The notes below the pieces were generated by a model. That model saw only the letters and a program-made list of their open reading frames with translations, had not been told where the DNA came from and made no database searches. Of a stretch of 64,000 nt of DNA, positions 759 through 3,133 are shown piece after piece. How positions within the stretch are numbered: position 1 is the stretch's first letter; every line of letters starts with the position of its first letter. The stretch comes from a phage, in sequence record PZ452582.1. One strand, 5' to 3'. Position numbers and translations under genes: made by a program.

Positions 759-831
759 TGGGAATTAGCCAAGTTGGTAAGGCATAGCACTTTGACTGCT
801 AGATGCAAAGGTTCGAGTCCTTTATTCCCAG
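759..831 (+). tRNA. tRNA-Gln (anticodon UUG)
   Basis: Cloverleaf: acceptor tgggaat/attccca, anticodon loop cTTTGAc... read as UUG at 792-794, T-loop ttcgagt. Confidence 0.85.
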
Positions 832-832
832 C

Positions 833-919
833 GCGAGAATGGTCAAATTGGTAAAGGCACAGCACTTAAAATGCTGCGGAATGATTTCCTTGTGGGTTCG
901 AGTCCCACTTCTCGCACCA
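833..919 (+). tRNA. tRNA-Leu (anticodon UAA), class II with long variable arm, CCA encoded
   Basis: Acceptor gcgagaa/ttctcgc, anticodon loop cttaaaa, T-loop ttcgagt, 3' CCA. Confidence 0.85.
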
Positions 920-924
920 AATTT

Positions 925-998
<74 letters not shown>

Positions 999-1008
999 AT
1001 TTAATTTA

Positions 1009-1082
1009 CTCCGTGTAGCTCAGTTTGGTAGAGCGCCTGATTTGGGATCAGGAGGTCCAAGGTTCAAATCCTTGTATGGAGA
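1009..1082 (+). tRNA. tRNA-Pro (anticodon UGG)
   Basis: Acceptor ctccgtg/tatggag (G-U pairs), anticodon stem cctga/tcagg loop tttggga, T-loop ttcaaat. Confidence 0.8.
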
Positions 1083-1084
1083 CT

Positions 1085-1174
1085 GGAGGCGTGGCAGAGT
1101 GGTTTAATGCACCGGTCTTGAAAACCGGCAGTCGCTCCGGCGACTCATAGGTTCAAATCCTATCGCCTCCGCCA
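1085..1174 (+). tRNA. tRNA-Ser (anticodon UGA), class II
   Basis: Acceptor ggaggcg/cgcctcc, anticodon loop cttgaaa, long variable arm, T-loop ttcaaat, CCA encoded. Confidence 0.85.
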
Positions 1175-1179
1175 GTTTT

Positions 1180-1255
1180 GCTGATTTAGCTCAGTAGGTA
1201 GAGCAACTCACTTGTAATGAGAAGGTCGGCGGTTCGATTCCGTCAATCAGCGCCA
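1180..1255 (+). tRNA. tRNA-Thr (anticodon UGU)
   Basis: Acceptor gctgatt/aatcagc, anticodon stem actca/tgaga loop cttgtaa, T-loop ttcgatt, CCA encoded. Confidence 0.85.
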
Positions 1256-1256
1256 A

Positions 1257-1331
1257 GGCCCTGTAGCTGGAAGGTTCAAGCAAGCGACTCATAATCGCCA
1301 GATGGTGGTTCAATTCCACCCAGGGCCACCA
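1257..1331 (+). tRNA. tRNA with CAU anticodon (Ile2 by T4 analogy, or Met)
   Basis: Acceptor ggccctg/cagggcc, anticodon loop ctcataa, T-loop ttcaatt; T4 has an AUA-reading tRNA-Ile here (from memory). Confidence 0.75.
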
Positions 1332-1340
1332 AATTAATTT

Positions 1341-1427
1341 GGGGAGTTATCCCGTAGAGGTAGCGGTGTGGACTGTAAATTCATTGTCATTGCGACTCGG
1401 GTGGTTCGACTCCATCACTCCCCACCA
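1341..1427 (+). tRNA. tRNA-Tyr (anticodon GUA), class II
   Basis: Anticodon loop ctgtaaa and variable arm gtcattgcgactc closely match recalled E. coli tRNA-Tyr; acceptor ggggagt/actcccc; weak anticodon stem. Confidence 0.65.
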
Positions 1428-1431
1428 ATTT

Positions 1432-1506
1432 GGATGTGTAGCTCAATGGCAGAGCGATCGCCTGTTAAGCGATTGGTTATAGGTTCGAATCCTATCACGT
1501 CCGCCA
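1432..1506 (+). tRNA. tRNA-Asn (anticodon GUU)
   Basis: Acceptor ggatgtg/cacgtcc, anticodon stem atcgc/gcgat loop ctgttaa, T-loop ttcgaat, CCA encoded. Confidence 0.75.
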
Positions 1507-1620
1507 AATTTGTGACAACTGTCACATTAATATCTACTTGACGCGATTATAGGGGTTGAACTGATCACTCTTCTCTTAATTTCGTGTGAAGACATCTTGA
1601 TTGTTGGAGTAGGTATTAAT

Positions 1621-1696
1621 GTGGCCGTAGTTCAGTTGGTAGAACTCGAGATTGTGATTCTCGTAGTCATGGGTTCGACTCCCATCGGTCACCCCA
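1621..1696 (+). tRNA. tRNA-His (anticodon GUG)
   Basis: Acceptor gtggccg/cggtcac, anticodon stem cgaga/tctcg loop ttgtgat, T-loop ttcgact, CCA encoded. Confidence 0.75.
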
Positions 1697-1700
1697 ATTA

Positions 1701-1776
1701 CGGGGCATAGCTCAGAAGGAAGAGCAAGGACCTTCTAAGTCCTAGGTCGTAGGTTCGATCCCTACTGCCTCGACCA
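1701..1776 (+). tRNA. tRNA-Arg (anticodon UCU)
   Basis: Acceptor cggggca/tgcctcg, anticodon stem aggac/gtcct loop cttctaa, T-loop ttcgatc, CCA encoded. Confidence 0.85.
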
Positions 1777-1794
1777 ATTATAAGTGAGGAAAAT

Positions 1795-2145
1795 ATGAAA
1801 GGTAATGTTTATTTAGTAGTTCATGATTTAACATTTTACTTCAATGAATATGAAAAACATATCTCATTTCGTGAAATTAATTTACTTTATCAACATGCGG
1901 ATTATATTTATATTCAAAACGAATTTGGTCATTGGCAATTTCTCAAAAATCGTTCATTTGGCTTAGATGGTTACGAATATTTTGAACGTAAAGACCTTTT
2001 AGATAAAATTCCGTTATCTACACAATATCAAAATCACAAATCTTTATATAAATGCCGTCCAATTCGAAATGTTGAATCCGCGTATGAAGCAATTGATTTA
2101 TGGCGTGAACGCCGTAAACAGATTGATGCTTTAAAAGAATATTAA
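1795..2145 (+). CDS. hypothetical protein (116 aa)
   Basis: ATG with SD gtgagga 8 nt upstream, directly after tRNA-Arg. Confidence 0.6.
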   Translation: MKGNVYLVVHDLTFYFNEYEKHISFREINLLYQHADYIYIQNEFGHWQFLKNRSFGLDGYEYFERKDLLDKIPLSTQYQNHKSLYKCRPIRNVESAYEAIDLWRERRKQIDALKEY

Positions 2146-2454
2146 GAAACCGGGTCGCTACCGGTAAGTCGTCGGACTGATGTTCCCTGAGTAAGGAATT
2201 GCGTTAATAATCTTTGCGTTTATTGATGCCCTCTTACATCACAGCAGAAACGGCGCACCGAATTATCGATTCGAGGAAATATCTTTGCCGTAAGCCGAGT
2301 AGCGTTTTTGACGGAACGTTCGGATATGGTCGAGATATGGCCTTTTAAAAATATTGAGTAGCGTCAACTGCTTAATAACCGGGTTCGAATCCCGGCGTTT
2401 CGTACAAACACTTGCCTTAGCAGGTGGAACCCCGACAAGGTTGCCGCAAGGCTT
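2146..2454 (+). ncRNA. putative stable RNA(s) with tRNA-like T-arm; candidate counterpart of T4 species 1/2 RNAs
   Basis: About 300 nt GC-rich with no ORF, hairpins (accgggtcgctaccggt), T-arm-like gggttcgaatccc, ends at an intrinsic terminator. Confidence 0.4.
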
Positions 2455-2482
2455 AGCCCCGACCGAAAGGTTGGGGCTTTTT
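2455..2482 (+). terminator. rho-independent terminator
   Basis: agccccgacc-gaaa-ggttggggct stem followed by TTTTT. Confidence 0.7.
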
Positions 2483-2484
2483 GG

Positions 2485-2492
2485 TATAAATA
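2485..2492 (+). promoter_or_regulatory. T4-type late promoter core TATAAATA
   Basis: Exact TATAAATA about 40 nt upstream of the CTS-bearing ORF at 2533. Confidence 0.5.
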
Positions 2493-2532
2493 TAGTAGTA
2501 TATTAAATCCACGAATTAAAACAGGAAATAAG

Positions 2533-2706
2533 ATGAAATCATATACTCAATTTTTAAATGAAGCGGTGTTAAATGAAGCATCTAGCACCGAAATTCAAGC
2601 TGTCGCAAAAGCAGCCATTGCAGCGGGTAAATATTCTTATAAAGATGCTTCTGATGAATCGCGATTCCAGTTCGCACGCGACATGAAAGCGGAAGGATTT
2701 ACGTGA
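2533..2706 (+). CDS. small protein (57 aa) with capsid-targeting-sequence-like N-terminus (candidate internal protein)
   Basis: N-terminus MKSYTQFLNEA resembles T4 internal-protein CTS MKTYQEFIAEA; SD agga; late promoter upstream. Confidence 0.5.
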   Translation: MKSYTQFLNEAVLNEASSTEIQAVAKAAIAAGKYSYKDASDESRFQFARDMKAEGFT

Positions 2707-2718
2707 AATGCAGTTAGT

Positions 2719-3006
2719 ATGGCCTGGAAAAGTTTAGTTGCTACTGGAGCTGCTTTTGCAAAGGCTTCAGGTAAACCTGCTCCTAAGGCTGACCCTAAAG
2801 CAGCACAAGAAAAAAATATTGCTAAAGGAATTATCTCTAGGTATGAAGCAATTCTTAAAGAACTTTTGATAATTAAGACCGAAGGCCAGAAACTTGCGCG
2901 AGCTCATAGTTTCAAAGATAACCCACATGCTCACTCTCTTGAGTATGTTGAAGACATCCAAAAAATTATTAAAGACCGCATTTGGTCTGCTAAACAAATC
3001 AAATAA
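2719..3006 (+). CDS. hypothetical protein (95 aa), Lys/Ala-rich N-terminus
   Basis: ATG ORF ending just before a terminator hairpin. Confidence 0.55.
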   Translation: MAWKSLVATGAAFAKASGKPAPKADPKAAQEKNIAKGIISRYEAILKELLIIKTEGQKLARAHSFKDNPHAHSLEYVEDIQKIIKDRIWSAKQIK

Positions 3007-3013
3007 CATTCTT

Positions 3014-3042
3014 AGCCCCGACCAAAAGGTTGGGGCTTTTTG
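3014..3042 (+). terminator. rho-independent terminator (second copy of the 2455 hairpin)
   Basis: agccccgacc-aaaa-ggttggggct plus TTTTT; near-identical to 2455-2482. Confidence 0.7.
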
Positions 3043-3133
3043 GTATCTAGGCCTTTCCGGGCCTCTCTAGACATCATTTAGTTTCTACCCTTTATAATAT
3101 ATTATCCTATCTTTTAATTGCCCCTCCCTGCCC

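Follow-up and report, generated by a model that had tools for sequence, protein, structure and literature searches.

Species 2 RNA (rnaD) and species 1 RNA (rnaC) are small stable RNAs of bacteriophage T4 that have been known since the 1970s. They lie at the end of the T4 tRNA cluster, upstream of e.8, in the order rnaD, a 6-nt spacer, rnaC, a trailer, and a terminator. The transcript of the cluster crosses it entirely and terminates after the species I gene, and the tRNAs as well as the species I and II RNAs derive from this precursor (PMC2330249). RNAC has been confirmed by Northern blot, and RNAC and RNAD have been classed as late RNAs (PMC9697503). No function is ascribed to rnaC or rnaD in three reports (PMC3014915, PMC9697503, PMC12685909), and our literature search for their function or for the original species 1 sequence returned just statements of no known function. 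When a T4-like phage adapted to a new host, a convergent SNP arose in rnaD (PMC12685909). This SNP is the sole functional hint that we found in the literature.

A second described system involves repeated terminators. In the promoter-early stem-loop (PeSL) cassettes of T4-type phages, a non-essential gene lies between two conserved stem-loop terminators, and relatives without the gene have a single-copy empty site (Arbiol et al. 2010, PMC2839356; Comeau et al. 2014, PMC4122927). In these phages, recombination at duplicated stem-loops of this regulatory kind is a documented driver of insertions and deletions (PMC2839356, PMC4122927). In phage RB32, the gene RB32ORF133c carries the GenBank note "flanked by 34 bp imperfect direct repeat".

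The 64,000-nucleotide stretch of DNA analyzed here (the window) is DNA of a T4-like coliphage of the genus Tequatrovirus and is 99.8% identical to phage AndreasVesalius. We consider it very probable that, at the distal end of a tRNA operon, it carries orthologues of rnaD and rnaC with a terminator that occurs again beyond an optional cassette of one gene (Table 1). An earlier, sequence-only reading of this DNA had proposed stable RNAs like T4 species 1 and 2; the two genes are the orthologues themselves. The order of elements through the first terminator is that of T4, to which positions 2146-2487 are 98.8% identical. Unlike T4, the window has an ORF between tRNA-Arg and rnaD, and the cassette and a second terminator downstream. 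In T4, which lacks this phrog_3355 ORF, tRNA-Arg directly precedes rnaD (1 nt apart), whereas in the window the stop codon of the ORF lies directly before or within the conserved start of rnaD. The tRNA genes upstream number 11 (759-1776). rnaC, rnaD, and the terminator are annotated at equivalent sites in the GenBank records of the closely related phages Aplg8, RB5, GiZh, and Kha5h, and a BLAST search of 2142-2487 against 5,426 complete E. coli genomes returned no match.

Table 1. Features of the rnaD/rnaC locus and the adjoining cassette, in window coordinates
Feature	Position	Strand	Details or basis
ORF, 116 aa	1795..2145	+	phrog_3355; between tRNA-Arg and rnaD
rnaD orthologue (T4 species 2 RNA), 118 nt	2142..2259	+	mapped from T4 annotation
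A/U-rich spacer GAATTA between rnaD and rnaC	2260..2265	+	sequence; putative role in processing
rnaC orthologue (T4 species 1 RNA), 139 nt by T4 annotation	2266..2404	+	T4 mapping and covariance model
rnaC acceptor stem, 5' strand CGAUUCG	2267..2273	+	pairs with 2396-2402 CGUUUCG; tandem U.U mid-stem
rnaC long arm P2, four stacked helices	2274..2343	+	apical loop UUGAC at 2308-2312
rnaC arm P3, 10-bp stem	2352..2377	+	conserved loop CGUCAA at 2362-2367
rnaC T arm CCGGG / UUCGAAU / CCCGG	2379..2395	+	stem covaries G-C, U-A, A-U
rnaC acceptor 3' strand (2396-2402), discriminator U (2403), ACA (2404-2406)	2396..2406	+	sequence comparison
Conserved 7-bp hairpin in the rnaC-terminator trailer	2409..2426	+	folding and T4 comparison
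Repeat copy 1 with predicted intrinsic terminator T1	2452..2487	+	stem 2455-2478, T-tract 2479-2483
TATAAATA, T4 late-promoter consensus	2485..2492	+	41 nt upstream of cassette ATG; overlaps end of copy 1
Cassette gene, RB32ORF133c homologue, 157 aa	2533..3006	+	phrog_2280; in-frame TGA 2704-2706
Repeat copy 2 with predicted terminator T2	3011..3046	+	stem 3014-3037, T-tract 3038-3042

The sequence-only reading had described a GC-rich, hairpin-rich non-coding block after the tRNA-side ORF, ending in a terminator, and this description holds. The G+C content of 2146-2487 is 48.2%, compared to 34.1% in the whole window; that of the tRNA array is 47.7%, and adjoining coding sequence has 28-37%. 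Folded whole, the 344-nt region has a minimum-free-energy (MFE) structure of -126 kcal/mol (z = -5.9), which was equaled by none of 100 shuffles. In the alignment to T4, the 119-nt T4 rnaD falls at 2142-2259; about 117 of its 119 bases are shared, a single nucleotide is deleted, and positions 4-119 of the T4 RNA correspond to 2145-2259. The deleted base is also missing in another T4 assembly. A 5' conserved block (AGAARCCGGG...CCCTG, starting at 2145) and a 3' conserved block (ATCACAGCWGAAACGGCGCAC) flank a variable hairpin in the center of rnaD. The structural support is weaker for rnaD than for rnaC: RNAalifold predicts 29 pairs from a 15-sequence alignment, with compensatory changes in 9, and the single-sequence fold has a z of only -1.6. 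The spacer after rnaD is the counterpart of AAUUA, AAUAA, or AACAA between a tRNA 3' CCA and rnaC in other genera, and it is presumably a processing site. The ends of both RNAs in this phage are predictions carried over from the T4 annotation.

rnaC aligns without gaps to its T4 counterpart (137 of 139 positions identical), and both substitutions lie in stems. The sequence-only reading had also suggested a covariance-model search of Rfam. That scan, at gathering thresholds and at E<=10, returned no rnaC or rnaD family and chance-level matches only, but a covariance model that we derived from 27 homologues matches 2266-2406 with 159.6 bits. It is well supported that rnaC forms a tRNA-like four-way junction of acceptor stem, P2, P3, and T arm, with a kissing helix of 4-5 bp between loops. 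The single-sequence MFE fold is the consensus fold (-50.2 kcal/mol, z = -3.6). In an alignment of 14 sequences, 93% of cells are paired and 28 of 44 pairs have compensatory changes; no shuffle out of 500 did as well, and slid controls were 38-48% paired. With 36 distinct sequences from 13 genera, 91.8% of cells are paired and 34 of 48 pairs show double changes. Compensatory changes affect 17 of the 22 P2 pairs in the first 14 sequences and 18 of 22 in the 36-sequence alignment, and 9 of the 10 P3 pairs covary. The kissing helix joins GUCA (2363-2366) in the P3 loop to UGAC (2309-2312) in the P2 loop; its cells are paired in 100% and 99.3% of cases in the 14- and 36-sequence alignments, respectively, and two independent double changes, UUGAU:AUCAA and UUGGC:GCCAA, are found there. 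The acceptor stem covaries from A-U to G-C, and all of its pairs are Watson-Crick in two phages, Yersinia phage fHe-Yen9-01 and Pectobacterium phage PM2, while its positions 4-5 are U.U in 33 of 36 sequences. The T-arm-like element pointed out by the sequence-only reading is present, but as part of this complete fold and not in isolation.

The likeness of rnaC to tRNA extends from its structure to its genomic setting. As in a class II tRNA, with its long extra arm, or in tRNA mimics such as the tRNA-like domain of tmRNA and the bacterial Y-RNA-like YrlA, a 7-position acceptor stacks on a T stem of 5 bp with a 7-nt UUCGAAU loop and is followed by a discriminator, and the acceptor and T arm covary. 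Homologues, 140-144 nt long, were found in T4-like enterobacterial phages from no fewer than 13 genera. Beyond the T4 group, the gene is found within arrays of tRNA genes. For example, it lies between or adjoining tRNA genes in Karamvirus, Gelderlandvirus, Moonvirus, Winklervirus, Tegunavirus, and Mosugukvirus, with a tRNA-type, 5-nt A-rich spacer between the preceding CCA and rnaC. This placement in many genera argues that rnaC is handled as a tRNA-like molecule. Unlike a tRNA, rnaC has neither an anticodon loop nor a D arm with a GG loop; it has tandem U.U in the acceptor and two long arms tied by the kissing helix, and in most members ACA stands where a tRNA has CCA, which is encoded only in Marfavirus and phage PM2. 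Because of the two U.U mismatches in most members and the ACA tail, full tRNA-like handling (CCA addition and aminoacylation) is uncertain. rnaC also differs from tmRNA in having no tag, and it scores below threshold with all Rfam models; neither ARAGORN nor Rfam reported a tmRNA in the region, and YrlA was absent from the Rfam results even at E<=10. Relaxed rnaC pattern scans of IMG/VR and a metagenome collection recovered only T4-like and Marfavirus contigs, and the pattern scans together with the covariance model found no member of the family beyond Enterobacterales phages. Two pattern-scan matches in Chloroflexota MAGs were rejected as homologues and attributed to chance, since the covariance model does not match them.

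The terminator that closes the block is duplicated downstream. T1 has a 10-bp stem with 7 G-C pairs, a GAAA loop, and a TTTTT tract (-20.3 kcal/mol); T2 has the same stem length, G-C pairs, and tract, with an AAAA loop (-19.5 kcal/mol). Both match the description of rho-independent (intrinsic) terminators and are predicted as such, and T1 is the end of the tRNA/rnaD/rnaC operon. The sequence-only reading had recognized the recurrence of a 30-nt terminator; the second copy is there, although the repeat is longer, at 36 nt. The two copies, identical at 35 of 36 positions and 559 nt apart, are the only ones in the 64 kb, where none is expected by chance. They bracket a 523-bp cassette that is absent from T4, as the sequence-only reading had supposed for the duplicated terminator. 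T4 has one terminator copy, with a left flank that matches that of copy 1 and a right flank that matches that of copy 2, and the sequence to the right of copy 2 runs on as in T4 toward e.8. The cassette is present in 471 phage records, compared to about 806 that carry rnaD/rnaC. In RB32, the cassette gene is about 95% identical in amino acid sequence and occupies an equivalent position, but it lacks the nonsense codon, and its repeats are less similar (33 of 36 positions).

Two ORFs were thought to precede the second terminator copy. They (2533-2706 and 2719-3006) are one split gene, because both halves match phrog_2280. Where the window has TGA at 2704, AndreasVesalius has GGA, and all other homologues have Gly. 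Recoding of this TGA as selenocysteine or by readthrough was rejected, given that the nearest relative differs only by its GGA and the remaining homologues uniformly have Gly; the codon is best read as a nonsense mutation or a sequencing error.

The cassette resembles PeSL cassettes in that a stem-loop lies on both sides of a dispensable gene, a single-copy empty site exists in relatives, and the module is transcriptionally insulated. It differs in its regulatory sequences. The 36-nt repeat contains the terminator only, ends at GGTAT, and has no reported promoter-like site inside either copy, and no sigma-70-like early promoter lies beside the stem-loop. The repeat is not a textbook PeSL, because it has no sigma-70 early promoter. 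Instead, the cassette seems to use the late-promoter consensus TATAAATA, which occurs at only 6 sites on the + strand in 64 kb and follows copy 1 but not copy 2; from what is known of late promoters in T4, we infer that the site at 2485 acts as one. A further difference from PeSL is that recombination between the window's repeats is deduced from comparison alone.

Several other readings of the locus were weighed. The block at 2142-2487 could encode small proteins rather than RNAs, as ORFs of 44 aa (2214-2348) and 50 aa (2354-2506) are present and many GenBank records have "hypothetical protein" CDSs over it. However, the substitutions between genera are paired and preserve helices (34/48 pairs) rather than codons, the RNA has been seen experimentally in T4 (PMC9697503), and the G+C content is that of the tRNA array and unlike that of adjoining coding sequence, making a protein-coding block extremely improbable. 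Reading rnaC as a tRNA, be it genuine, interrupted by an intron, extended by a long extra arm, or decayed into a pseudogene, is also very improbable. The 7-position acceptor stem of rnaC, its canonical T arm, and discriminator base would fit, ARAGORN calls a 95-nt "tRNA-Met" within the PG7 homologue, "tRNA-Lys" is annotated over the homologue in phages G29 and G4507, and Rfam tRNA-Sec matches 2311-2403 at 16.6 bits. This last score is far from the 47-bit threshold and reflects just the T arm and long extra arm of rnaC. In the window, ARAGORN makes no tRNA call in 2142-2406, RF00005 does not match, and no tRNA match in Rfam attains the threshold of 29 bits. In place of a 7-nt anticodon loop, rnaC has the conserved 6-nt CGUCAA, which serves the covarying loop-loop helix, and most members have the ACA tail. 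A decaying pseudogene is excluded because of the fixed length across 13 genera and the strong purifying and compensatory evolution.

It is likewise very improbable that rnaD and rnaC are parts of one larger, split tRNA-like molecule. Its acceptor stem would be formed by GAAACG, near the 3' end of rnaD (2247-2252), and CGUUUC (2396-2401), and the rnaD/rnaC boundary as annotated would fall in the loop of a D-arm-like hairpin. The MFE structure of the 344-nt region contains this acceptor pairing, and GAAACG is invariant in 15 of 15 rnaD sequences. However, ten other genera have rnaC without rnaD, with a tRNA or unrelated sequence upstream instead; the 5' strand of rnaC itself covaries with the 3' strand and is fully Watson-Crick in two lineages; and the D-like hairpin is mismatched in T4 itself. 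The larger cloverleaf of the whole-region fold was rejected on these comparative grounds, and the alternative pairing between rnaD and rnaC may form transiently in the precursor. As for the repeat, strong terminators are alike, and the second copy might be a coincidence or convergence with no shared origin and no role in cassette gain or loss. We give this virtually no credence, as the identity includes the non-stem flanks (CTT... and ...GGTAT), such a match is not expected by chance, and the single-copy site of T4 has exactly the outer flanks of both copies. In Mosigvirus WFbE185 there is likewise a terminator copy on each side of the cassette gene, and in Mosigvirus both copies carry another stem variant, common to the two.

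With rnaD and rnaC as separate RNAs, one model for their production is as follows. A long transcript, probably initiated from promoters that precede the tRNA array (one late-promoter consensus is found at 413), would run through the 11 tRNAs, the ORF, rnaD, and rnaC and stop at T1 (2455-2483). Host tRNA-processing enzymes would then cut rnaD and rnaC from this precursor, with rnaC set off from the upstream RNA by an A/U-rich spacer of 5-6 nt, as after tRNA 3' ends in related phages. An acceptor stem and a T arm constitute the minimal substrate of RNase P and the CCA enzyme. The annotated 5' end of rnaC, U2266, precedes the first acceptor pair (C2267-G2402) by one nucleotide, and canonical RNase P cleavage would put the end at C2267. 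The released rnaC would fold into the four-way junction, locked by the P2-loop/P3-loop kissing helix. After T1, the late promoter, one gene, and the second terminator copy would form a self-contained late-expression cassette, and homologous recombination between the 36-nt repeats could excise it, giving the T4-like single-copy state, or insert it.

The observation is a correct rediscovery of what was already known: species 1 and species 2 RNAs belong to the textbook picture of T4, and the RB32 record already mentions the terminator-flanked cassette. What value the observation retains lies in the lack of an assigned role for rnaC and rnaD over about 50 years (PMC3014915, PMC9697503). Our best guess, a tentative one, is that rnaC imitates a tRNA and so interacts with a host or phage factor that binds tRNAs. 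The fuller proposal, in which rnaC would be the first member of a family of tRNA-mimic RNAs that has yet to be curated and would act as a decoy or adaptor for such a factor, is rather improbable. Examples of factors for a decoy would be a host tRNA-targeting defense nuclease or a tRNA-maturation enzyme. The analysis also flags a recurrent mis-annotation of rnaC and rnaD in GenBank as "hypothetical protein", "tRNA-Met", or "tRNA-Lys". The comparative model presented here provides mutational targets in these RNAs, namely the tRNA-like four-way junction, the conserved tandem U.U, the loops of the kissing helix, and the tail with its choice of CCA or ACA.

Between 2146 and 2487 the G+C content is 48.2%, compared to 34.1% for the window, and this block folds far better than shuffled sequence (z = -5.9). 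The sequence-only reading described a GC-rich block with a T-arm-like element and a recurring terminator, all of which are present (CCGGG-TTCGAAT-CCCGG is located at 2379-2395), and its comparison with the stable RNAs species 1 and 2 of T4 proved literally right: the block consists of orthologues of T4 rnaD and rnaC. Positions 2146-2490 are 98.8% identical to T4, whose reference record places rnaD (species 2 RNA, 119 nt) and rnaC (species 1 RNA, 139 nt) between tRNA-Arg and e.8. Both genes map by alignment to T4, and annotation in close relatives' records puts rnaC, rnaD and the terminator at corresponding positions. Of the covariance search also proposed, the Rfam part yielded no family for rnaC or rnaD in Rfam 15, while our own rnaC model, built from 27 sequences, matches the window once, at 159.6 bits. 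The observation is thus confirmed and its interpretation supported; stable RNAs followed by a terminator-flanked cassette are already known. In T4, the tRNA-cluster transcript covers the cluster in full and stops beyond the species I gene; the tRNAs and both small RNAs derive from this precursor (PMC2330249). RNAC has been confirmed by Northern blot, and RNAC and RNAD are classed as late RNAs (PMC9697503).

Features of the tRNA, stable-RNA and terminator region
Feature	Position	Strand	Basis or remark
11 tRNA genes	759-1776	+	ARAGORN and Rfam; Gln, Leu, Gly, Pro, Ser, Thr, Met, Tyr, Asn, His, Arg
rnaD	2142-2259	+	mapped from T4; one 1-nt deletion
rnaD-rnaC spacer			GAATTA, 6 nt
rnaC	2266-2404	+	mapped from T4; two substitutions, both in stems
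rnaC acceptor stem	2267-2273 with 2396-2402	+	RNAalifold
rnaC long arm P2	2274-2343	+	RNAalifold
A-rich linker	between P2 and P3		RNAalifold
rnaC arm P3	2352-2377	+	RNAalifold
rnaC T arm	2379-2395	+	RNAalifold
rnaC discriminator	U2403, then ACA	+	RNAalifold
T1 hairpin and T-tract	2455-2483	+	10 bp, G+C-rich, -20.3 kcal/mol
Direct repeat, 36 nt	2452-2487 and 3011-3046	+	35 of 36 bases identical
TATAAATA, T4 late-promoter consensus	2485-2492	+	overlaps end of repeat copy 1

The source is a T4-like coliphage: region 1780-3100 shares 99.8% identity with Escherichia phage AndreasVesalius (Tequatrovirus) and has matches in 763 phage records. Sequence related to the RNA block was found in none of 5,426 complete E. 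coli genomes. The tRNA array resembles the segB-less arrangement of T2L, RB1 and RB3 (PMC2330249). In T4, tRNA-Arg lies 1 nt upstream of rnaD, whereas here a 116-aa ORF (phrog_3355) is inserted between them, its stop codon abutting the conserved start of rnaD. Just 5' of the first tRNA (664-689), inspection by eye showed TGCTTT, resembling a MotA box, and TATTAT about 12 nt further on, which agrees with the report of a middle promoter 5' of the tRNA cluster in T4 (PMC2330249); TATAAATA also occurs upstream of the array, at 413-420. The 114-nt spacer between tRNA-Asn and tRNA-His (1507-1620) is not random. About 95 nt are 85-90% identical to sequence directly 5' of tRNA-His in PG7, VPA32 and Pet-CM3-4 (Karamvirus), with partial resemblance to the corresponding sequence of Gelderlandvirus Melville. 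Its fold is stable (-33.1 kcal/mol, z = -3.4), with two compensatory changes in the 14-bp closing helix (1526-1539 with 1607-1620), and it has no Rfam match. This spacer could represent a further structured RNA, or an element that serves processing of the tRNA operon.

We sought rnaC beyond close relatives by BLAST and by scanning IMG/VR and metagenomes with patterns built from its invariant positions. BLAST recovered it from Mosigvirus, Dhakavirus, Karamvirus, Kanagawavirus, Tegunavirus, Gelderlandvirus, Moonvirus, Winklervirus, Mosugukvirus and Marfavirus, the scans added further homologues, and all are 140-144 nt long. rnaD is absent outside the T4/RB69/WG01 group. In six genera outside that group rnaC adjoins tRNA genes: between tRNA-Trp and tRNA-Gly in PG7, VPA32, Pet-CM3-4 and Melville, before tRNA-Trp in fHe-Yen9-01, LC53 and PM2, and after tRNA-Met in CIP9. 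Where a tRNA lies directly 5' of rnaC, a 5-nt A-rich spacer separates its CCA from rnaC. Most related-phage records leave the rnaC/rnaD homologues unannotated, and misannotation as "hypothetical protein" CDSs, as a 95-nt tRNA-Met or as a tRNA-Lys is widespread in GenBank (for example, PG7 NC_023561 75846-75940, G29 MK327940 and AR1 ar1_138).

The RNAalifold structure of 14 rnaC sequences is identical to the single-sequence MFE fold. In this alignment pairing holds in 93% of cells, and compensatory changes occur at 28 of 44 pairs; no shuffle out of 500 did as well, and slid controls reached 38-48% paired. Alignment of 36 distinct sequences to the covariance model gave 91.8% pairing, with double changes at 34 of 48 pairs. 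The acceptor stem contains a tandem U.U in 33 of the 36, and is fully Watson-Crick in PM2 and in the Tegunavirus members, fHe-Yen9-01 and a metagenomic contig related to it. UUGAC in the P2 apical loop (2308-2312) is complementary to GUCAA in the P3 loop (2363-2367), with 99-100% pairing. At the four scored positions the loops vary only in a compensatory way: Tegunavirus has UUGAU with AUCAA, and Marfavirus has UUGGC with GCCAA. These two independent events are good but not overwhelming comparative evidence for a predicted P2-P3 kissing helix. A useful side result of the analysis is this comparative model of rnaC.

Is rnaC a tRNA? In other genomes, annotators and ARAGORN sometimes label part of it as tRNA-Met or tRNA-Lys, and CCA is encoded after the discriminator in Marfavirus and PM2 (ACA or UCA in other members). 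We rejected a genuine tRNA since the window's rnaC has no ARAGORN call, no tRNA or tmRNA match in Rfam that passes the threshold, and no 7-nt anticodon loop. rnaC is best described, on its modelled fold, as a tRNA mimic carrying a tRNA-type acceptor/T minihelix. When the region is folded as a whole, the MFE structure offers rnaD GAAACG as the acceptor 5' strand instead, but most genera lack rnaD and the 5' strand of rnaC itself covaries with its 3' strand; this pairing was not supported, and we retain the acceptor stem internal to rnaC.

Across 15 distinct rnaD sequences (Tequatrovirus, Mosigvirus and Dhakavirus), a 5' block of 45 nt and a 3' block of 22 nt hardly vary, and the central hairpin between them is variable. 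RNAalifold predicts 29 pairs, nine with compensatory changes; among the nine is the pair that closes the 5' hairpin (A-U, G-C, G-U). The 3' end of T4 rnaD, ...GCGCACCA and then AAUUA, repeats the layout seen in PG7, where a CCA and a spacer lead from tRNA-Trp to rnaC; this suggests tRNA-style 3' maturation. Around 2181/2182, T4 reference NC_000866 has GATGGTTCC, compared to GATGTTCC or GAAGTTCC in 14 of the 15 sequences; T4 assembly OZ209057 and the window both differ from NC_000866 here, and its extra G reflects either polymorphism between strains or an error in old sequencing.

The 36-nt repeat, which carries intrinsic terminators T1 and T2, has two copies in 64 kb, with none expected by chance. 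T4 carries one terminator and then the e.8 leader; the present locus has 559 additional bp. The T4 left flank matches copy 1 and its right flank copy 2, so that the difference is exactly the cassette plus one repeat, bearing out the proposal that a duplicated terminator brackets a cassette. The two ORFs read between the copies are instead one gene: both belong to phrog_2280 (residues 1-51 and 57-172) and share a frame interrupted by TGA at 2704-2706. This codon is GGA (Gly) in AndreasVesalius and RB32, which encode a single 157-aa protein; the TGA is probably a nonsense mutation or sequencing error, and the split is consistent with a dispensable gene. The RB32 GenBank note describes this gene as "flanked by 34 bp imperfect direct repeat". 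In Mosigvirus WFbE185 the gene lies between two terminator copies that have a different stem variant in common; in Dhakavirus WG01 the gene is present without the repeat, and T4 lacks both gene and second copy. Phage records with the cassette number 471, compared to about 806 with rnaD/rnaC. TATAAATA, found six times on the + strand of the window, stands 41 nt from the cassette ATG and is absent after copy 2. A partial third terminator copy (ACCCCGACAAGGTTG, compare AGCCCCGACCGAAAGGTTGGGG) lies at 2430-2444, about 10 nt upstream of T1, with a small GCC-GCAA-GGC hairpin 3' of it. The arrangement resembles the PeSL cassettes of T4-type phages, in which repeated promoter/stem-loop elements mediate ORFan gain and loss (PMC2839356, PMC4122927), although here the repeat is a terminator only.

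Together with the T4 literature, the anatomy observed here (orthology, folds, terminators, repeat and cassette polymorphism) suggests that the tRNAs, rnaD and rnaC would be made as one precursor transcript terminating at T1, from which host tRNA-processing nucleases would excise rnaD and rnaC. The cassette would be expressed from the putative late promoter, its transcript ending at T2, and recombination between the repeats may cause its gain or loss. The function of rnaC and rnaD is described as unknown (PMC3014915, PMC9697503, PMC12685909), and the sole functional hint in the literature for these RNAs is a convergent SNP in rnaD during the adaptation of a T4-like phage to a host that is semi-permissive (PMC12685909). 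A putative role of rnaC as a tRNA mimic or decoy fits its anatomy.
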